64,000 nucleotides of DNA. Origin: Nitrososphaeria archaeon. GTDB taxonomy: Archaea > Thermoproteota > Nitrososphaeria > JACIWG01. Location of the stretch: positions 32,001 to 96,000 of the forward strand of contig JBEKIG010000011.1 in assembly GCA_050011875.1 (NCBI GenBank), written 5' to 3'. Shown here piece after piece: positions 6,571 through 63,803 of this stretch. How positions within the stretch are numbered: the first letter of the stretch is position 1; each line of letters begins with the position of its first letter. Under the pieces are notes generated by a model. It worked only from the letters and a program-made list of their open reading frames with translations, made no database searches and had not been told where the DNA came from. The position numbers and the translations under genes are program-made.

Positions 6571-7467
6571 TTATTCTTTTTCTGCTTTCTTGGTTGCTTC
6601 CTTTGCCATATTTGCAAGGTCTTTGATTCCGTAGAGTCCATATACAGGCATACTGGTTGTTGTACCGTCTGTTGAACCGGCTGTTGAACTGGTTGTTGAA
6701 GCAGCTGTTGAAGCAGCTGTTGAACCGGCTATTGGCATATTAGCTGGCATCAGTATTATCGTATTCTTTCCCTGCAATCCAAGCTCATAGATTATGTTCA
6801 TCCACTTTAATTGGAAGGCTATATCTTGTCCCTTGTACAGGTTCGCGGCATCCACCATCTTCTGTGCCACTTCGTATTCCGCCATAGCCAATATCACTCT
6901 AGACCTCCTTTCCCTTTCAGCTTGAGCTTGTCTTGACATGGCATCCTGTAGAGCCTGCGGTAATCCGACGTCTCTAATTTCGACTGCAGTAACTTTTATT
7001 CCCCAAGCCTCCGTCTTCGAATCTATAATTCCTCTAGCGATAGCACCAACCTTTTCCCTTTCAGTTAGCAACTCATCGAATGAAGCCTGACCAATGACCT
7101 CTCTGAGTGTTGTCTGGGCGGCTAATTGCGTCGCATAATTAAAATCCTCTGCACCCAAAACGACCTTTTGTAGGTCAACAGGTTGGAAGTACATAACGGA
7201 GTCAACTACTACTGGCACGTTGTCCTTTGTCAAAGTCTGTTCAGTCTTAAACGAAACCACCTGTAGCCTGGTCGATATGACAAATGGTACCCTTGATATA
7301 AACGGTGGAACATATATTACACCAGGACCTTTGAGACCTCTGTATCGACCCAGTGTAAGAAGAGGAGCCCTCTCCCATTCTTTGAGTATCTTGATCCCGC
7401 TGAGAAATATTGCTATAACTATCAGAATTATTATTACTAGGATAGAAAGAGTAGCTACATCCATCAA
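6571..7467 (-). CDS. SPFH/stomatin-like (slipin) membrane protein
   Basis: N-terminal TM, LTKDNVPV, AQTTLREVIG, WGIKVTAVEIRDV, QAQAERERR; downstream of nfeD. Confidence 0.92.
   Translation of the reverse strand: MMDVATLSILVIIILIVIAIFLSGIKILKEWERAPLLTLGRYRGLKGPGVIYVPPFISRVPFVISTRLQVVSFKTEQTLTKDNVPVVVDSVMYFQPVDLQKVVLGAEDFNYATQLAAQTTLREVIGQASFDELLTEREKVGAIARGIIDSKTEAWGIKVTAVEIRDVGLPQALQDAMSRQAQAERERRSRVILAMAEYEVAQKMVDAANLYKGQDIAFQLKWMNIIYELGLQGKNTIILMPANMPIAGSTAASTAASTTSSTAGSTDGTTTSMPVYGLYGIKDLANMAKEATKKAEKE
6670..6729. repeat. Five tandem 12-bp units (TGTTGAAnnnGn) encoding a Ser/Thr/Ala tract in the stomatin C-terminus
   Basis: Units tgttgaaccggc, tgttgaactggt, tgttgaagcagc, tgttgaagcagc, tgttgaaccggc encode AGST AAST AAST TSST AGST. 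Confidence 0.85.
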
Positions 7468-50380: not shown

Positions 50381-51871
50381 ATGAGAAAGGTTTCGAAAAC
50401 AAAAGGCATGATCAAGCCAAAATTTATCACGATCGCGGTTATCGCTATAATCGTCGTAGCAGCTATCGTCATAGGAGCCGTTGCCGTTTGGCAACTGAGT
50501 TCAAGTCCATCCAACAAAAAAAATACAGCAACCACACTCCCATCAATGAATTTAACCCTCATAGGGGCAACTGGAAATCAAATAATCTTGCATTCAAGTG
50601 ACATTGCAAAGCTTACCACTTACTCCGGGTACGGAGGCTACAAGAGCAGCGGTGGAATGCTCGGCGGCTTCGGTAATTACACCGGTGTACCACTAGTGAC
50701 CCTCCTGAACCTGGTAGGCGGCATCACTACCAACCAAACGGTCACAATAACAGGCAGCGACGGATATTCGATGGTTTACACCTATCAGCAGGTGAACGGC
50801 CAAGGTTACATCGCCTATGATCCAGTGACTGGCAGTGAATCCTCAGTTACCCGACCATTGACCGTGATACTCGCATATTACTATAACAGCACGACCCTGA
50901 CTTCTGATGTAGGACCCCTCAGACTCGTTATTCTGGGACCCCAAAGCTTACTCACTGAAGGCCATTTCTGGACTAAATTAGTGGACAAAATAGAAGTAAC
51001 TCAGAGTGTGGAGAATTGGAATCTAGTTGTCAACGGCACAACTCCTCTGAACATGGATATGCAAGCGTATACGGCAGACATCAATCACTTCCCACAAAAC
51101 TATACTGATAATACCGGCAACGTTTGGACAGGTGTAGCTCTGGATCAATTCGTATCTTACAGTGCCATCAACGGCGGCATAAGCAACGCATCTCTGGCCA
51201 AAGGTTATGTTGTGAAAGTGATAGGTGGAGATGGCTATTTCGCCATTATGAATGATACCTTTGTCAACAATAACAATAACATAATTGTCGCAGCAAAGCT
51301 AAACGGTGCCATACTCCCCAGCCCGTACTGGCCTTTGACTCTAGTCGGTTCAGACTTAACCATGAAACAAATGGTCAAGGACATAGTCCAAATCCAGATA
51401 ATGCCGATACCACACATGAACCTAACAATAGTAGGCTCCAACGGAACCCAAATAGTACTACACTCACAAGACATTGCGTCTTTTAGCTCATACACGGCAG
51501 CAGGAGGATTCAAAGGAAAGGGTGGAATCCAAGGCGTCGGCAATTATACTGGTGTACCAATTCTGACCCTCCTGAACCTGGTAGGCGGCATCACTACCAA
51601 CCAAAACGTAACAATTACGGGCAGCGATGGATATTCGATGGTTTACACCTATCAACAGCTGAATGGACAGGGGCTGAACACGTACGACCCCACGACCGGA
51701 AACCCAACGTCAGCCACCCAATCTATGACAATGATCGTAGCCTATTACCGAAATGGAGCAGCGCTGCCTTCCGGAGGACCTTTGACAATCGCGATTGTAG
51801 GGCCTCAGGGCTTGCTCACGGATGGAAACAAATGGGCGAGTATGACAGAGAAGATTCAGGTAAACCCCTAG
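50381..51871 (+). CDS. Membrane-anchored extracellular protein with three molybdopterin-oxidoreductase-like (sulfite oxidase fold) domains, no Cys
   Basis: N-terminal TM. Three repeats of (Y/W)TGV.L..L...G....V...G.DGY...I.A...NG....(G/W)PL.L........(W/M).....I.(V/I). More than 10 N-x-S/T sequons. Confidence 0.75.
   Translation: MRKVSKTKGMIKPKFITIAVIAIIVVAAIVIGAVAVWQLSSSPSNKKNTATTLPSMNLTLIGATGNQIILHSSDIAKLTTYSGYGGYKSSGGMLGGFGNYTGVPLVTLLNLVGGITTNQTVTITGSDGYSMVYTYQQVNGQGYIAYDPVTGSESSVTRPLTVILAYYYNSTTLTSDVGPLRLVILGPQSLLTEGHFWTKLVDKIEVTQSVENWNLVVNGTTPLNMDMQAYTADINHFPQNYTDNTGNVWTGVALDQFVSYSAINGGISNASLAKGYVVKVIGGDGYFAIMNDTFVNNNNNIIVAAKLNGAILPSPYWPLTLVGSDLTMKQMVKDIVQIQIMPIPHMNLTIVGSNGTQIVLHSQDIASFSSYTAAGGFKGKGGIQGVGNYTGVPILTLLNLVGGITTNQNVTITGSDGYSMVYTYQQLNGQGLNTYDPTTGNPTSATQSMTMIVAYYRNGAALPSGGPLTIAIVGPQGLLTDGNKWASMTEKIQVNP
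50697..51605 (+). repeat. Intragenic direct repeat: 42-bp identical block at 50697-50738 and 51564-51605 (domains 1 and 3)
   Basis: tgaccctcctgaacctggtaggcggcatcactaccaaccaaa is identical in both; a second identical block ggatattcgatggtttacacctatca follows each. Confidence 0.9.
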
Positions 51872-57568: not shown

Positions 57569-59824
57569 TTATATAATCAAACTTGCCCATTCTTGTTGGA
57601 CCTTTTTTCTTATTTCCTCTCTTAGTTCTCCTAACCAAGACCTTGATCTATGGGATGCCATAGGCTTCTCTTGAAAAACTGAAGGTTGAAAGAACCGTCT
57701 CAGCCGCATCCAATAACATATCACGATACTTTTCTTTGTCTATGTTTACGTGGGAGCTTGCTAGCTCTAATGGTATGACGCGACAGAGAGGGTTGTGGTG
57801 GTCTGAATCCATGTAGATGAAGTTAATGTCTTCGCCAGACTTTACCTGTTTACCTTTGCTTGCGAGTTGGATGGCCGCAGCCACATGTGGAAGTACGCTT
57901 CTATATTTATTCACAGTTTTCCTAAGCGTCTTAGAGACCACCAATTCTTCAAATGGTATATCTCCACCCATAATTTTGTCTATGGTTCTTGTGATGAGAA
58001 GCATGGCGCGCTCATATCCAACGTTGCACACTTCTTCAACAGTCGTACAATCGAATAGGGTTTGAATGAGCTTGGCTTGGAACTCCTTTATGAAGGACGG
58101 CGTGTCATGTCGTCTTAACTCTATTCCTCTAACGATAAGCTCTCCATCATAAAGGACGCCAAAGTAGTGTTTCTGCGCCTCCATATTCAGAGAAGGGTCT
58201 GCCTCCAACGGTAGTAGAAGAAGGAACCTGTAGTGATGATCCAAGGAAATCGGGAGACCTATGAATTTGCTTAGTTGTGCGGCTAGCTGTTCGTAATCTT
58301 CTTTTGTCGCATCATCCTTTTTGACGAAGACAGAATCTGTGTCCGCATATATCAGTTCAAAGCCCTGGCTCTGAACGTAGTCTTTTGTCCTGATCATTAC
58401 CTGCCTAGATTTTCTGTTTATTTCCTCGAAGGCCAGTACGTTGCCGAACCTGTTCCAACAACACCCTGAAGTGCCATAAATGCACACCAAAACCATCTTT
58501 AAAGCACTTTGACGCTGCTCACACCACAGCCATTCCTTGCTTTGTTTGGGAAAGCTCTTACGGAGCCTCTTGAAATATAATCGTCGCTCCAGAACCTTCC
58601 CTGTCACTAATGGGAGTATCGCGTCATCCCTTTTATCCAGTCCTTTTGGACCTACAGTTTCGAAACTTATACATTCTTTGACGATCAGGTTTGGGTACTC
58701 CGATTCATAGTCCAATTCTGCTACGTTGGCGTGCACCTCACCTATTTTGGGAGGGATGATCATACCGCCCCTATCGCGTTCAAAGATCTCCTTCATAGGC
58801 CGAATGTACTCGTAGTAGCCGGTGTTCTTTGGAATCACATAATCCCTTTGAAGTAGTTCATAACAGACGCGGCTGTCGTTGACCCTGTTAGCGGACCACC
58901 TTGCTGCTAAACCAGGTGTAAGAAACCCGAATCGTGAACGTTCGACAAGGCCAGCTATTCCCCACTTATCGTGCAATATGCCATAGGATTCATAGCCGAT
59001 AGCCACTCTTCCTCGCATACAATATGGAAGAGACCTGTTAAAACTATCAGAATCCACATCTTCTCTTCTGAGTTGCATTTTGATGTTCAGCGATCTTGCC
59101 CGTGTCTGCAGGTATGGGAAGGTGAATTTATCACAGTTCTGTGTAACTATGAAATCAGGGTCCTTTTCCTTCACAATCGATTCGAATCCCTTTAGAACCT
59201 CCTCTTCACTTCCTTCGATAAGAGTTTCTTTATCTTCAAATCTTGTTTCTATCGAAGTTATTGGATCAGTTTGAGGGTTTGGAGTTAGAGACGTTGCTCC
59301 GATGTTTATGCCAAAGTGCAGTGTCGTAAAATGTGGAGGCTCTATCTCTTTACTGTCATTAACCTTTCTGATTTCTGACAAGCACCAATTTGTGTCGTAC
59401 AGGAATTCGACTTTGCTGGTCGGTTCAATTTGGAACCTTGTAAATAAATACTGTTGCAGATGTAGAAGATCTATGTTGAAAAGCTCCATCACTTGTTCCT
59501 GCCTTTTAAGGGCCCCTACTATCTGCCTGTAGGCTAAGGCGTCTTCGACGACAACATGGATGAGCCTTTTCTTTTTCTCTTCTCTTAGGTTTGTGTATTT
59601 TTCTACCCAAGTCGTTCTTCTTATGTCCATCTGATTCTGTAGGGCGGATAGAAGCTGTTCACCATCTTCATATGTCTTAGGAAGAATGTAAGGCTTGGAT
59701 GGTAATGGTCTTGGAGCCTGACAACCTTATTGTCTTCTGTTCGAATCCAGATAAAAGCTAAGTCGTCTTCTGTGTAGACGTCAAGGACCCAGCCAACCTC
59801 AGGTACCATTTGGAGCACTTCCAT
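57569..59824 (-). pseudogene. polB2: Family B DNA polymerase, PolB2/Dpo2-type (degenerate 3'-5' exonuclease), interrupted by frameshifts near 59690 and 57651
   Basis: N-terminal GWVLDVY..IWIRT..HP / YILPK joins the 660-aa ORF with DRGG, LDYESEYPNLI, QSALK..IYG, YADTDS, RGIELRRHD. The C-tail RSRSWLGELREEIRKKVQQEWASLII* is in a shifted frame. Confidence 0.85.
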
Positions 59825-60161
59825 CTGCTGTGGTAGAGTAGTGCAGTTGAGCTTTAAGTTGGGAAAGTTCCTCTTTAATCTCTTTGATGACCTGCTCCTT
59901 CTCCTCCACCCTCTTTGCGAGAGCTTCGATGAGTTTTCTGTTATGCAGATTCGATGTCAAATTGAGCCGATCGATCACAACAGGAATATTAGAGTTAGCC
60001 ATTGCCGCTTGCTCGCTCTCCCATGCCAGTTTGAGTAGGAGGTCGAATGCCTGCCTGTGGCCTTGATCGACTAAACTGCCTCGATACTGTGATTTGAGCT
60101 CATTAACCGTTTCTTCATAAAGAGTGCGCGCGGAAGGCGTTATTCTACCCATGTTCGTCAT
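59799..60161 (-). CDS. Small PolB2-associated helical protein (MGRxxPS family, arCOG07300-like); probable start ATG 60152
   Basis: MGRITPSAR...YRGSL....RQAFDLL..AW plus a coiled-coil tail; overlaps the polB2 start. Confidence 0.75.
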   Translation of the reverse strand: MTNMGRITPSARTLYEETVNELKSQYRGSLVDQGHRQAFDLLLKLAWESEQAAMANSNIPVVIDRLNLTSNLHNRKLIEALAKRVEEKEQVIKEIKEELSQLKAQLHYSTTADGSAPNGT

Positions 60162-61296
60162 CCCTCGTGGTTACATTGATCCTGTTCCTTATTGATTCAA
60201 TGTCTTGAGCGAGCCTTTTAGTTTCATCGTCTATGGTGAGGAAGCGGTTTTGGACGGACTCAATAAGTGCACGAGTGTCCACCGATGCTGTAAGGTTCAA
60301 CCCATCCAAAAGTGTAAATTCCTTTAGGTTGCTTAATGCCTTCTGTTCCATATTCCAAGCTCCCTTAAGCAGAACATCAAACGCAGACCTGTGCCCAAGA
60401 TCTAGGAAATCGTTCTGGAAGAACCTTTTGAGGCGGTCCATCTGCTCACCGTAAAGTTGCTGGAAGGATGAAACGTTCCTTCCTGTCATTAGGTCTAAAG
60501 AACCGGCTTGACTTACATATAGCACTATGGACTCTGGAGTCCTCTTATATGGATGCTTCACAAGCGTTACCTTATAGGATGATATTGGCCCATCGCAGAA
60601 CTTTCTAAAATGAACTAAGATTGAAGCTGCTTGCCTCATGTAGATCCCACCTAACGGCTTGGGAGCCAATACTTTACCTGTATCTATGGCATCAACGGTC
60701 ATAACGAAGGCTACATGGTTTTCAGATGCCGTCCTCCAAAGGTTGCCTACAACCTTCTTCAGAACCTCCTTGGACTCCTTAGGCTTCTTCGAGTTTACAA
60801 GGAAACGTGTGATGTTATGGACTGCGAGAAGCTTAATTTCCTTTTTTTCTCTTATCAAATCTGCAACCTCTTTTGACACAAACCATTGTCTTTCTTCATT
60901 AAATGCTGCCGCTACCTCTACATTTTTGAAGACAAGGGAAGGATCTATACCCACATGCTTCGCTAGCATGCCGAGCCTTGATGGATCAATTAGAGTCTTG
61001 CCGACGTAGTAGTCGGTGTTGTTAAAGTAGACTGCTTTCGCATCAAGGCCACCTTTTTCGGCTGGCATAACACAGTTTACAAGAAGACGATGTATGAGGA
61101 GATCAAGTATCTCTGGCTCACCGTAGAACAGGTAGAAGGACCCTCCTTCAATTCCACCTATCAGGCTATCTAGGTCACCGGAGCCTGTCGTCAGCTTCAG
61201 CCTTTTCCTCTGCTCATCAAAGTCCTCCAGAGTGGTCTGAATAATTGGCATAGGTCTGTCGCCCATCCTGTGGTCGCCTCCAAGGAGAAGGTTCAC
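60145..61296 (-). CDS. Inactivated RadA/RecA-like protein fused to a C-terminal copy of the PolB2-associated small protein
   Basis: LTTGSGDLDSLIGGIE, Walker A degenerate (YGEPEILD), Walker B LLAVHN, KPLGG..M.Q.A, LVKHP; C-terminus MTGRNVSSFQ..LDLGHRSAFDVLLKGAW. Confidence 0.8.
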   Translation of the reverse strand: MNLLLGGDHRMGDRPMPIIQTTLEDFDEQRKRLKLTTGSGDLDSLIGGIEGGSFYLFYGEPEILDLLIHRLLVNCVMPAEKGGLDAKAVYFNNTDYYVGKTLIDPSRLGMLAKHVGIDPSLVFKNVEVAAAFNEERQWFVSKEVADLIREKKEIKLLAVHNITRFLVNSKKPKESKEVLKKVVGNLWRTASENHVAFVMTVDAIDTGKVLAPKPLGGIYMRQAASILVHFRKFCDGPISSYKVTLVKHPYKRTPESIVLYVSQAGSLDLMTGRNVSSFQQLYGEQMDRLKRFFQNDFLDLGHRSAFDVLLKGAWNMEQKALSNLKEFTLLDGLNLTASVDTRALIESVQNRFLTIDDETKRLAQDIESIRNRINVTTRDDEHG

Positions 61297-61322
61297 TTCG
61301 ACCTCTCCCCCCCTTAAGGTAT

Positions 61323-62315
61323 CTAACCTTCTCTGCCCTTCTTTGGCTCCGGATCCTCCACTCCCTTCTCCGATATTACAAAGCGATTTTCTGAATAGGG
61401 ATGATAAGGACTGTCGATAATTGTTGCAATCCTCTCTTGCCCAGCCTTCTTCAAGTAGACCCTGTACGTGCAGGCATGCCCTAAAATGTGTCCTCCAGCA
61501 GGCTTTGTAGGGTCCCCGAAGAACGTGTCCGGCTGTGCTTGAACCTGATTAGTAACTGCTACCGCCACGTTATAGATTTCAGCCATCCTGAGAAGGCGGT
61601 GCACGAGACCGTTCAGCTTCTGCTGTCTCTCAGCCAGCGTCCCTCTTCCCACGAACTCAGCTCTGTGCAAGGATATTATACTATCAACAATGACGAGCTT
61701 GACGTTGTACTGTTCGATGTATTTTCCGAGCCTTTTGACCGCCAGCTCGAGGTGGCTGCTGTTGTAGACCTTGCAGATTATAACGTTCTTGAGAATTTGG
61801 ATTGGGTCTAACCCTCTTGCTTCAGCTATCTGGTAAACCCTCTCTGGGCGGAAGGTGCTTTCAGTATCTATGAAGATCACATTTCCCCCGAATCCACCCT
61901 TCTCTATTGGAAGTTGTGCTGTCACGCAGAGGGTGTGGCAGAGCTGGCTCTTGCCGGAGCCAAATTCACCCCAAAACTCTGTGATAGCCTGAGTCTCAAC
62001 ACCCCCTATGAGCAGGCTGTCAAGGTTCTTCGAACCTGTCGTACACCTAATCATGGACTTTCTCTTCTCATAATTTTCTATTGCTGGAACGAACTCCTTA
62101 TCGATTAAGCCGCTTTCCATCAACGCCTTTTGAGCGACGAATATCATGGCACTCGCATTCTCCTTCGCACCACCGATCTTATCAGCCACTTCATCTGGTA
62201 GGGCGACTGCGAGATCGAGAACAGATTCTATCCCAGCGTCCTTAAGCTTCTTTTCAGTTGACGGCCCAATACCCTCCAAGTCGCGGAGCTCCATATCAAA
62301 TACGGTTACAGACAT
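61323..62315 (-). CDS. radA: DNA repair and recombination protein RadA
   Basis: N-terminal HhH (LEGIGP), FxxA (FVPA), GEFGSGKS, IDTESTFRPER, IVDS, RAEFVGRGTLAERQQ, TNQV, GGHILGH. Confidence 0.95.
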   Translation of the reverse strand: MSVTVFDMELRDLEGIGPSTEKKLKDAGIESVLDLAVALPDEVADKIGGAKENASAMIFVAQKALMESGLIDKEFVPAIENYEKRKSMIRCTTGSKNLDSLLIGGVETQAITEFWGEFGSGKSQLCHTLCVTAQLPIEKGGFGGNVIFIDTESTFRPERVYQIAEARGLDPIQILKNVIICKVYNSSHLELAVKRLGKYIEQYNVKLVIVDSIISLHRAEFVGRGTLAERQQKLNGLVHRLLRMAEIYNVAVAVTNQVQAQPDTFFGDPTKPAGGHILGHACTYRVYLKKAGQERIATIIDSPYHPYSENRFVISEKGVEDPEPKKGREG

Positions 62316-62410
62316 CTTTCTAACCCCTACAAAAAATATTCCATGGGACGATATTTATTGGATGAAGGACCTTAGGGGAGAGGGGAGGGTGGGTTTAATA
62401 CAGCTTTTCT
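62313..62410 (-). promoter_or_regulatory. Conserved promoter/leader, copy A (upstream of radA)
   Basis: The 36-nt core 62346-62381 is 35/36 identical to 63461-63496. Similarity extends to the RBS/ATG and to an upstream TTAA box. Contains the palindrome AAGGACCTT. Confidence 0.85.
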
Positions 62411-62482
62411 GGAATGTCATATAATACACGAATAATCCCTCTCTGTAGATATTCTATTATCAGCTAAAGTATATTTTTCGGA

Positions 62483-62665
62483 TTATTCCTTGAACCACTG
62501 AAAATATAGGAAGAAGCCAACGAATATAATAAGTGTCAAAAGAAAGTATCTTTGGGCTTCAGTAATGTCCTGCATTTCATATAAAATTGTGTAGAACCAA
62601 TAAGCTAACGCAACTACTATAGTAACTCCTACACCCCTTTTTGCCCAATTATCTTTTTCAGTCAA
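62483..62665 (-). CDS. Small two-TM hypothetical protein
   Basis: GGAGG RBS before TTG; two hydrophobic segments. Confidence 0.55.
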   Translation of the reverse strand: MTEKDNWAKRGVGVTIVVALAYWFYTILYEMQDITEAQRYFLLTLIIFVGFFLYFQWFKE

Positions 62666-62684
62666 AATCCTGAACCTCCATCAT

Positions 62685-62870
62685 TTAGAACCTACCTTCC
62701 CCCAATACAAAAGAGATAATGGGAATAGCAAGAATGAAAACAAATAGAATTGTGAAAATATCTGGGAGATTAGGAAGTAGAGGAAAAATCAGTAAAAATG
62801 CAAACAGAATCGCAAGTAGACTTAGCATTTTCCTTTTATTTACCCGATTTTTGGAAATTGTTTGACTCAT
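62685..62870 (-). CDS. Small two-TM hypothetical protein
   Basis: Basic N-terminus then two hydrophobic segments; TATA-like sequence upstream. Confidence 0.5.
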   Translation of the reverse strand: MSQTISKNRVNKRKMLSLLAILFAFLLIFPLLPNLPDIFTILFVFILAIPIISFVLGEGRF

Positions 62871-62941
62871 TCAAGTCGCAATATAATATTATATACATGC
62901 AACGTTGGAAAAACTTTTGTAGCATAGTACATGCAACATCG

Positions 62942-63373
62942 CTACTCCCTAACCACAAAAAGCGTTCTTCTAGTCATGGAGTATAGCAATGGACAGACTT
63001 TGCTATTCAATCTATAAAATCGTCCATCCTTTTCGACGAAACCGAATTCGAGCAGCCTCTTCAAAATCCTATAGGCTGTTGTCCTATCACACCTTAATGT
63101 TTCTACTACATCTTTTACCGTAAGATCCTTCGTCATAACCATCGTCCCAACTACGAGGATGGATTTCCACACCCTCTTTCTTCCATAAGAGGCAGCTTTT
63201 ATCAGTATTTGAATTTCATCCGTGAACTTTTTCATCTCGTATGATGGTGGGAGACGTGAATTGAGCTCCTCCCTCATAACTTTAGAAATGACTTTAGAAA
63301 TCCTGCTACTTACCCTATCGGATAAACTGTCTGCTAAACGGTCTACATCTATTTCCCCATTCACTTTCACCAT
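62942..63373 (-). CDS. Helix-turn-helix transcriptional regulator (C-terminal wHTH, N-terminal helical region)
   Basis: LTVKDVVETLRCDRTTAYRILKRLLEFGFVEKDGRFYRL. Confidence 0.8.
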   Translation of the reverse strand: MVKVNGEIDVDRLADSLSDRVSSRISKVISKVMREELNSRLPPSYEMKKFTDEIQILIKAASYGRKRVWKSILVVGTMVMTKDLTVKDVVETLRCDRTTAYRILKRLLEFGFVEKDGRFYRLNSKVCPLLYSMTRRTLFVVRE

Positions 63374-63428
63374 TTTCTAATTTCTAGAGGATGGGAGTGA
63401 TACCTGTATCATCATTCATGCTTATTGC

Positions 63429-63520
63429 CATCTTTCTGACCTCCACAAAAACATCCTAGAGGACGATATTAATTGGATGAAGGACCTTAGGGGAGAAGGT
63501 GGGGTTAACACCGTCTTTCT
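63429..63520 (-). promoter_or_regulatory. Conserved promoter/leader, copy B (upstream of the HTH regulator)
   Basis: Aligns with 62313-62410, including GGAGG..AGAAAG-ATG at 63431. Confidence 0.85.
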
Positions 63521-63803
63521 AAATATACTCCGACTCCTTGAAGAAACCGTATAGAACCCGGACTACGGGGTTGTCTAGGTTGATCTGGTACCTGAGGTGT
63601 ATGGCCCTAAGCTCCTTTACCCAGTTGATGTTGGTAAGGTGCCTGAGGTTCTCGTTCAGATCGCTTCGCTTTAGCCCTGTACCCTTTATGAGGGAATATT
63701 TGGTGAGGGATTCGTTAGGTTTCTTGGCCAACTCTGCCATAACCTTTATCCTGCCTATTGTTCCAAGGCCCTCCTCAATTTCTCTTTTACGATTGACGTA
63801 CAT
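63519..63803 (-). CDS. Small winged-helix (ArsR-like) protein
   Basis: GRIKVMAELAK...LTKYSL..GTGL.RSDL...L..L..INWV....YQINLDNP. Confidence 0.75.
   Translation of the reverse strand: MYVNRKREIEEGLGTIGRIKVMAELAKKPNESLTKYSLIKGTGLKRSDLNENLRHLTNINWVKELRAIHLRYQINLDNPVVRVLYGFFKESEYI

Follow-up and report, generated by a model that had tools for sequence, protein, structure and literature searches.

A probable promoter-leader module in two copies, before an accessory radA and an inserted regulator gene of a Nitrososphaeria archaeon

The window analysed here, a stretch of 64,000 nucleotides (nt; contig C11:32001-96000) from the assembly of a Nitrososphaeria archaeon (G000; 2,643,350 bases or 2.64 Mb in 119 contigs), carries near its end a short non-coding sequence twice: copy A runs into the start codon of radA, copy B into a short upstream open reading frame (uORF) ahead of a gene for a helix-turn-helix (HTH) protein. 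All genes between 57.6 and 64 kb lie on the minus strand; in the direction of the genes the order is Orc1/Cdc6, w94 (a winged-helix protein of 94 residues), copy B, the uORF, the HTH gene, two small open reading frames (ORFs), copy A, radA, an inactivated RadA (iRadA), an ORF of 120 residues and a DNA polymerase (Table 1). A preliminary description had taken the repeat for a damage-response operator shared by radA and the HTH regulator, in analogy to the LexA boxes of recA and lexA; this interpretation is partly supported by the analysis below. For comparison, G001 is the only other genome of the same genus (2-9% divergent from G000), G003 lies outside the genus (68% complete), G004 belongs to another genus of the same family and G012 is 91% complete; labels in L denote metagenome or genome loci (L011 is the G003 locus, L100 contig C77 of G008), the class-wide sample comprises 201 genomes, and four metagenomic DNA runs cover related strains.

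Table 1. Features of the duplicated module and of the genes around it, in window coordinates
Feature	Coordinates	Strand	Basis
Copy A: full radA promoter and leader (putative), spanning the ancestral intergenic region from its end on the w94 side up to the ATG of radA	62313..62410	-	alignment with copy B, the same-genus genome and promoters outside the genus
Copy A C-run CCCACCCTCCCCTCTCCCC (gene strand; G-runs on + strand)	62375..62393	-	sequence reading
Box between C-run and TATA, TAAGGTCCTTCATCCA; holds an AAGG-T-CCTT dyad and the presumed position of the B recognition element (BRE)	62359..62374	-	length conserved in most orthologs
Copy A TATA box ATAAATA, 36 nt before ATG	62352..62358	-	conservation and genome TATA peak
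radA Shine-Dalgarno-like GGGGT	62323..62327	-	sequence reading
Copy B: second promoter/leader copy (putative), from the w94 stop codon (63519-63521) to the uORF ATG	63429..63520	-	alignment; also in G001
Copy B C-run CCCCACCTTCTCCCC, degraded	63490-63504	-	sequence reading
Copy B TATA, ATTAATA	63467-63473	-	sequence reading
Copy B Shine-Dalgarno, GGAGG	63440-63444	-	sequence reading
15-codon uORF (MAISMNDDTGITPIL) opened by the copy B ATG; stop 10 nt before the HTH ATG	63384..63431	-	sequence reading
Winged-helix regulator, 143 residues, TrmB-like HTH, weak Sta1/Lrs14 resemblance, under copy B	62942..63373	-	Pfam TrmB
Two small hydrophobic ORFs (61 and 60 residues), coding status doubtful	62483..62870	-	no family match
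radA, full length, helix-hairpin-helix and Walker A (GEFGSGKS), cluster head	61323..62315	-	Pfam Rad51 8.2e-88, HHH_5
Inactivated RadA (iRadA) fused to a PPB2-like tail	60145..61296	-	Pfam Rad51 4.2e-18, partial
Helical protein of 120 residues, PPB2-like	59799..60161	-	position and likeness to iRadA tail, not family profile
Family B DNA polymerase, PolB2 by context, intact DTD motif	57648..59824	-	Pfam DNA_pol_B 5.8e-33
w94, ArsR/SmtB-fold winged-helix protein of 94 residues; start overlaps Orc1/Cdc6 gene by 17 nt	63519..63803	-	AlphaFold2, Foldseek
Orc1/Cdc6 paralog, 3' end; gene continues to about contig C11:97091	63787..64000	-	translation

The duplicated stretch is real. The two copies, in direct orientation and 1115 nt apart, align from about 62410 and 63520, respectively, down to an ATG (62315-62313 and 63431-63429); their 36-nt core is identical at 35 of 36 positions, the sole difference falling on the W position, and it occurs at exactly two places in the window when up to three mismatches are allowed, against 0 expected from 100 shuffles. 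A repeat finder recovers 59 nt at 85% identity (family D4), and a search of the whole assembly with a 108-nt query returns two significant places (E = 2.8e-51 and 2.9e-16) and no third copy, the six remaining rows being chance matches of 14-15 nt (E ≥ 0.86). With only two copies in the 2.64-Mb assembly, and no inverted repeat at their ends, the element is thus not a dispersed repeat, and a random occurrence in the manner of a miniature inverted-repeat transposable element is ruled out. Local alignment finds no similarity beyond the ends of the repeat: 1117 of 2000 shuffles score at least as high as the real sequence on the left, and 1940 of 2000 on the right. Since the flanks are no more alike than shuffles, the limits given at the outset are essentially the true ones, and the proposal that only regulatory sequence is shared holds. 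A duplication reaching into the 3' end of w94 or into the first codons of radA is likewise not significant against shuffles, and the idea that the uORF is a relic of the radA N-terminus is therefore dropped. A scan of the genome for the core before other repair genes, suggested as a check, finds only the same two copies. The window has two other repeats of note: a 239-nt direct repeat of 74% identity (50666-50904 and 51533-51771) forms an internal duplication of a secreted or membrane protein of 496 residues (50381-51871, plus strand), whose gene adjoins others resembling those of an ABC transporter; and 12-nt units stand in tandem at 6646-6734 (six overlapping copies of 29 nt), probably as part of a coding repeat.

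What had been delimited as the core consists of the TATA box, the presumed BRE position, the box upstream of it and the start of a C-run, and the whole module would read, on the minus strand, as C-run, box of 15-19 nt, BRE/TATA, a spacer of about 24 nt holding the transcription start, Shine-Dalgarno sequence and ATG. In the upstream regions of 954 ORFs of this genome, TATA-like words peak between -45 and -26 and Shine-Dalgarno-like words between -15 and -11; both copies fit, the ATAAATA of copy A and the ATTAATA of copy B each beginning 43 nt before the ATG, at the TATA distance usual for the genome. Where a purine-rich BRE would lie, both copies have CATCCA as the six bases before TATA; orthologs differ from one another at this place. 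The geometry, together with the conservation described below, points to a promoter, and archaeal activators usually act just upstream of BRE/TATA, at fixed spacing. The same geometry bears on a structured RNA leader or riboswitch-like element common to both messenger RNAs, which had been offered as an alternative. The C-run, which has CCUCC, could pair with the Shine-Dalgarno sequence in read-through transcripts, and this pairing is drawn in the minimum free energy fold of copy A; the core, however, lies at or upstream of TATA and of the expected transcription start, with an expected leader of about 10-15 nt, and a long structured leader is excluded for this reason. Moreover, for either strand of each copy the fold energy is on a par with that of shuffles (z = 0.11, 0.34, 0.42 and 1.10), Rfam gives no match at E ≤ 1, and several orthologs have the C-run but lack a Shine-Dalgarno sequence; of all the explanations weighed here, this is the one to which we attach the least credence.

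The module precedes radA orthologs in related genomes, as the first reading implied, and its layout, which several families of Nitrososphaeria have in common, leads from a C-run (CCCCCCTCCCCCC) through a box of 15-19 nt and a TATA box (ATAAATA) to the ATG about 35 nt further on. Copy A was aligned with the same-genus genome and with 11 promoters from beyond the genus, of which 10 precede radA; the full table holds 19 promoters (17 before radA, plus copy B in two genomes). The C-run typically takes the form C5-7 T C5-7, seen on the plus strand as a G6-7 A G6-7 tract in most orthologs, and lies 15-19 nt before TATA in most of the 17 radA promoters, including those of 13 genomes or contigs outside the genus; at 8 of 10 loci the gene strand has no other tract of this kind within about ±3 kb. 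TATA takes the form ATAAATA or TTATAT(C/T), with ATAAATA invariant in 12 of the 17, and its distance to the ATG is 30-37 nt in promoters of families f1 and f8 and of metagenomes. The arrangement is kept across radA orthologs of 52-100% identity and in at least three families (f1, f2, f8). The sequence of the box, by contrast with its length, is lineage-specific: it includes AGGTCCT in the present family and ACGGTAC in some others, while family f2 has CATGCRTG. The AAGG-N-CCTT palindrome to which attention had been drawn is present, but a dyad of such size is within chance here (p = 0.19) and is not conserved: for 15 orthologous boxes, shuffled sequence gives dyads as good as the best ones observed (combined p = 0.82). 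Nor is the 'AGAAA..TTAA' box at the left-hand end, described as part of the repeat, conserved in the orthologs. In a family with complete genomes of about 1.6 Mb (L023, L026, L032, L034-L036), the radA upstream regions show TTGACAGAACC, then TTATAAAG, then a GTACNNGTACCGTACCATACGGT stretch into the ATG, which may be another lineage-specific control region of radA.

Constraint is concentrated in the core. Copies A and B are identical at 13 of 22 positions in the left part, 11 of 19 in the C-run, 27 of 28 in the core and 22 of 31 in the spacer, and in no segment does either have a closer relative than the other; the core still matches that of another genus at 24-25 of 28 positions. Between G000 and G001 the 36-nt core has no change in either copy. 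The 14-nt spacer between TATA and Shine-Dalgarno (62326-62339 and 63441-63454) has three changes per copy in the same comparison (21%), several times the 4-7% by which the flanking genes differ at third codon positions; in both copies, sequence near the presumed start site evolves unusually fast.

The distribution of the module suggests how it came to be present twice. Outside the genus, eight radA loci have a single copy: at six of these (L051, L054, L055, L056, L058 and G057, with RadA proteins 64-87% identical) it fills the gap from the w94 stop codon to the radA ATG, and at the other two (G003 and L052) one copy stands before radA with other genes upstream and w94 not adjacent. The insert and both copies are found in G000 and G001, and the duplication is restricted to this one genus. 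A single copy in the same gap elsewhere, together with both copies in the genus, points to an ancestral insertion of about 1 kb with duplication of the intergenic region. In the ancestor of the genus, DNA with a TrmB/Sta1-like HTH gene would have entered between w94 and radA, and the whole intergenic region would have been duplicated along with the insertion; copy B would retain the w94-side position and copy A the radA-side position, so that the HTH gene (through the short uORF) and the radA cluster would each keep one promoter copy. Both copies would have stayed intact where the transcription machinery and the reader of the upstream element are recruited, and the HTH gene would now be under the same control as the radA-PolB2 cluster. 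Judged by the alignment, the second copy arose when the promoter was duplicated in its entirety, and did not evolve independently as an operator; the duplication event by itself is ordinary genome evolution.

Direct repeats flanking about 1 kb of lineage-specific DNA could also be a recombination scar, that is, attL/attR-like ends left by site-specific integration of a small mobile cassette, with the identical core as the crossover site. Diverged arms around an identical core are what att sites classically show, there is a weak PHROG match, and in G004 homologs of the HTH gene stand at three places, of which one is interrupted by an in-frame stop and another is fragmentary, a hint of mobility. 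Against this, there is no integrase or transposase between or beside the repeats, the similarity reaches some 30 nt to each side of the core, which is unexpected for a pure crossover site, the same core stands at radA in genomes that never held the insert, and no relatives of the HTH gene were found in viral contigs. In two of the four metagenome runs (X4 and X8), contigs of related strains cover most of radA, the HTH gene and w94; the X4 contigs end inside both repeat cores and those of other runs end nearby, as assemblers do at repeats, and a junction lacking the insert was seen in none of the four runs. A scar of this kind is accordingly improbable.

We therefore favour, at a probability of roughly 70%, the reading that the repeat is a complete archaeal promoter-leader module present twice, native to an accessory radA that heads a radA-iRadA-PPB2-like-PolB2 cluster, the second copy of which wires an inserted HTH gene into the same control. 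Co-regulation by the duplicated promoter is well supported, and the HTH gene and the radA cluster are probably switched on together. Several points weigh against this reading. Copy B, with a C-run 5 nt shorter than that of copy A and TATA altered to ATTAATA, may be weaker or differently regulated. The absence of change from 72 core positions is only marginally below neutral expectation at 2-9% divergence, and the main argument for constraint therefore rests on the contrast between A and B and on the other genera. No further sites that would define a regulon appear in the G000 genome. Finally, the association with w94, present in 28 of 201 genomes overall but in all 10 genomes of the class-wide sample with a C-run promoter before radA, is suggestive only, as the genomes are related and the counts not independent; and G012 has a C-run about 120 nt before radA, while w94 was not found there by this query.

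The insert of about 1 kb contains the HTH gene and two doubtful small ORFs. The ATG of copy B, first taken for the start of the regulator gene, opens the 15-codon uORF instead, the ATG of the HTH gene lying at 63373; the length of the uORF is kept in G001, with one residue changed there and two in related strains. The ORF ending at 63519 (w94) is located upstream of copy B, its stop codon being followed at once by the repeat. The only model that the HTH protein passes is Pfam TrmB (1.1e-07; 32 bits against a cutoff of 25.6); in NCBIfam it remains below the curated family cutoffs for Sta1 (28 bits against 80) and Lrs14 (20.2 against 90), and comparison with the w94 profile gives generic winged-helix likeness only (probability 4.6%). 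Substitutions relative to G001 are distributed 3/1/7 over the codon positions, so the gene evolves as a coding gene. Its transcript probably ends shortly after the stop codon, given the T5 run found there (A5 on the plus strand; 62899-62903, 39-43 nt after the stop), and the region is a possible terminator; a 10-nt direct repeat, TACATGCAAC on the plus strand, flanks the oligo-T run at 62884-62893 and 62918-62927. The small ORFs differ from G001 at 13 and 17 positions (5/5/3 and 6/4/7, without third-position bias), have no family match, no homologs elsewhere and no counterparts next to the HTH copies in G004; they are perhaps remnants of inserted DNA without a coding function.

A circuit like that of LexA, in which the inserted HTH protein binds the shared core before its own gene and before radA and represses or activates both, is the main idea of the preliminary description. 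The protein is predicted to be of a winged-helix DNA-binding type, its coding sequence appears to be under purifying selection, as judged by the codon-position pattern, and its gene is located behind a copy of the radA promoter; the weak likeness to Sta1 also fits, as Sta1 activates the promoter of a radA paralogue in Sulfolobus (PMC2175319). However, the module is older and far wider than the HTH gene, standing at radA in at least three families without an adjacent HTH homolog, while the HTH family is tiny (five hits among 5.8 billion proteins; 3 of the 10 genomes of the family). The two also part company in individual genomes: the HTH homologs of G004 (71-73% identical) occur without the motif, away from any radA and in a genome without this type of radA, and G003, 68% complete, has the motif but the HTH gene was not found. 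Nor is the Sta1 site pattern, TTATT-CANGNA-TTATT as given in the covered part of PMC2175319, contained in the core. Control by the HTH protein is thus unlikely, albeit somewhat less so than a recombination scar; of the recA/lexA analogy, the setting of a damage-response promoter fits, but its extension to the HTH gene, a genus-specific insert with relatives in another genus that lack the motif, is weak.

Better candidates for a protein that reads C-run and box are encoded upstream of copy B: first in rank is the Orc1/Cdc6 paralog, alone or together with w94, and the inserted HTH protein would be a distant second. The AlphaFold2 model of w94 (predicted local distance difference test score 92.5) retrieves SmtB, CzrA and PagR with Foldseek (template modelling scores 0.68-0.77), and w94 follows an orc1/cdc6 gene at 27 of 29 loci. 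Behind w94 there is a C-run solely where radA or copy B is next, and at none of the 25 w94 loci with another next gene; the module goes with radA when radA and orc1 are separate, as in G003, where they lie 177 kb apart. Two iRadA loci without radA as the head gene (G064 and G005) have no C-run, and w94 was not found in these genomes. The same observations bear on the possibility that G-run and box form an origin recognition box (ORB), bound by the neighbouring Orc1/Cdc6 to initiate replication rather than transcription. The element adjoins an orc1/cdc6 gene; on the plus strand, ATG(A/G)AGGACC, 3 nt and the G-run loosely resemble the ORB consensus GTTCCAGTGGAAAC-AAA----GGGGG, and a G-string, which is said to contribute to Orc1 binding, is present 3' of the box (GGGGAGAGGGGAGGGTGGG at 62375-62393; PMC1868953). 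Yet the mini-ORB dyad (TTCCA..TGGAA AC) is missing, the plus strand reading TTGGATGAAGGACC with only about 6 of 14 positions matching the consensus as given in the covered part of PMC1868953; relatives have a single copy, not inverted copies on either side of an unwinding element rich in AT; and it is radA, not orc1, with which the element is associated. The contig, moreover, has no skew turn, and G000 no C- or G-runs upstream of orc1. A second Orc1/Cdc6, on contig C10 (65831-67045) and 29% identical to that of the window, lies between two large ORFs taken, by their translations, for PolD subunits; it is the likelier replication initiator. An origin function for the repeat is therefore very unlikely.

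Searches for a wider regulon were made in this genome and across the class. In G000, a scan for C4-7TC4-7 gives 11 hits, none promoter-like; of the 102 stretches of 13 nt that contain 10 C or more, copy A alone stands before a gene in the manner of a promoter; and CCCCT(T)AAGG occurs 21 times, against 11-21 for control words. Across the 201 genomes, the pattern CCCTCCCC-N16-26-ATAAATA matches 9 times and its reversed control 3 times; of the 9 matches, four belong to radA promoters, one lies before an ORF of 95 residues in G008 and four are in unrelated contexts. The G008 case (L100, contig C77, about 290-680) is a C-run/ACGGTAC/TATA promoter divergent from orc1-w94, before an ORF of unknown function; radA of the present type was not found in G008. 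By analogy to the PolB2 operons of Sulfolobales, the control exerted through the module may be induction by DNA damage. A bolder proposal, which we regard as tentative and rather doubtful, is that C-run and box are the damage response element of an SOS-like system of Nitrososphaeria, read by the operon-linked Orc1/Cdc6 paralog and its translationally coupled ArsR-fold partner, and that the regulon was extended by promoter copying before an acquired Sta1/TrmB-like regulator, in a loop of the recA/lexA kind. In a variant, which we do not grade separately, the conserved G-run on the template strand acts through non-B DNA structure; the absolute G4Hunter-type score is at least 2.0 in 11 of 13 radA promoters.

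The cluster under copy A is headed by what is, by sequence comparison, an accessory radA paralog, apparently active. A second radA of this genome, on contig C4, is 50% identical and of the type carried by most of the family; in 5 of the 9 other genomes of the family, the search gave only a match of about 51%. A G-run just after radA (61301-61320) was considered as an inverted copy of the element and set aside, as it is not conserved outside the genus. At two loci a large protein without Pfam match directly follows radA (L055:2735-4453, 572 residues; L011:2684-3985, 433 residues to the locus end); in G003 this protein, between radA and iRadA, is an uncharacterised extra cluster member. In translation, iRadA has no GKS/T at the Walker A place and no Walker A lysine, and the last approximately 110 residues of its tail are 34% identical to the next ORF (E = 2e-20). 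The polymerase gene is split into ORFs of 67 residues (59621-59824) and 660 residues (57648-59630) by the lack of one T in a T-run in comparison with G001, where the gene is intact; the frameshift may be genuine or a fault of the assembly. With its adjacent genes on one strand, which encode an inactivated RadA, a small partner of helical type and a polymerase of family B, the cluster has the pattern of the PolB2 mutasome operon, a type that is damage-inducible in Sulfolobales and whose neighbourhoods are enriched for orc1/cdc6 (PMC11791011, PMC4104785); an intact DTD motif is reported for some PolB2 proteins of TACK archaea (PMC11791011).

DNA-damage regulation in archaea has been worked out only in Sulfolobales (Orc1-2, ANTTTC), and the locus described here provides a concrete candidate cis element for Nitrososphaeria, a conserved C-run/TATA promoter before a radA-headed PolB2 translesion cluster. 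Its natural duplicate supplies an internal comparison, with one promoter, two unrelated downstream genes and one degraded C-run. If the SOS-like reading were true, Orc1/Cdc6 with an ArsR-fold partner would be a two-protein regulator not described so far. Literature searches found no description of the C-run promoter, the radA-headed form of the operon or the Orc1/Cdc6-ArsR-like pair, within a coverage that did not extend to the supplementary neighbourhood tables of PMC11791011, where they may be listed.

The closest known systems are the Dpo2 (PolB2)-iRadA-PPB2 operons of Sulfolobales, which share with the present cluster an inactive RadA, a small helical partner, a polymerase of family B, a neighbouring orc1/cdc6 paralog and a short element conserved in the promoter region (PMC11791011, PMC6061795). 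There, control is by the Orc1/Cdc6 paralog Orc1-2 through ANTTTC (PMC6061795); here, that motif, as given in the covered part of the same paper, is on neither strand of either copy, and the element is a C-run and box upstream of TATA. Further differences are that a full-length, apparently active radA heads the cluster, and that the Orc1/Cdc6 gene forms an overlapping pair with that of an ArsR-like protein; induction and binding are predicted only. Archaeal ORBs with a G-string resemble the element in having a short box and then a G-run beside orc1/cdc6 (PMC1868953, PMC3528665, PMC4010727), but the TTCCA/TGGAA dyad, the inverted pair and the unwinding element are all missing here, and the association is with radA, not orc1. 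Sta1, acting at the radA paralogue sso0777 of Sulfolobus solfataricus after DNA damage, is likewise a small winged-helix protein at a promoter of the RadA family, and its AT-rich site overlaps the core promoter (PMC2175319); the HTH protein of the insert reaches 28 bits against the Sta1 cutoff of 80.

The likeness to the SOS boxes of bacteria (recA, lexA, umuDC) lies in one cis sequence standing both before a unit of recombinase and translesion polymerase and before a regulator gene. The differences are that the present element has no dyad operator and, with two copies only, no multi-gene regulon; that a whole promoter was duplicated, not an operator within a different promoter; and that the regulator is a recent insert. 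The parallel extends to the products: the PolB2 complex has been compared with Pol V (PMC11791011), and the encoding of a full-length RadA together with the PolB2 complex parallels the requirement of bacterial Pol V for RecA.

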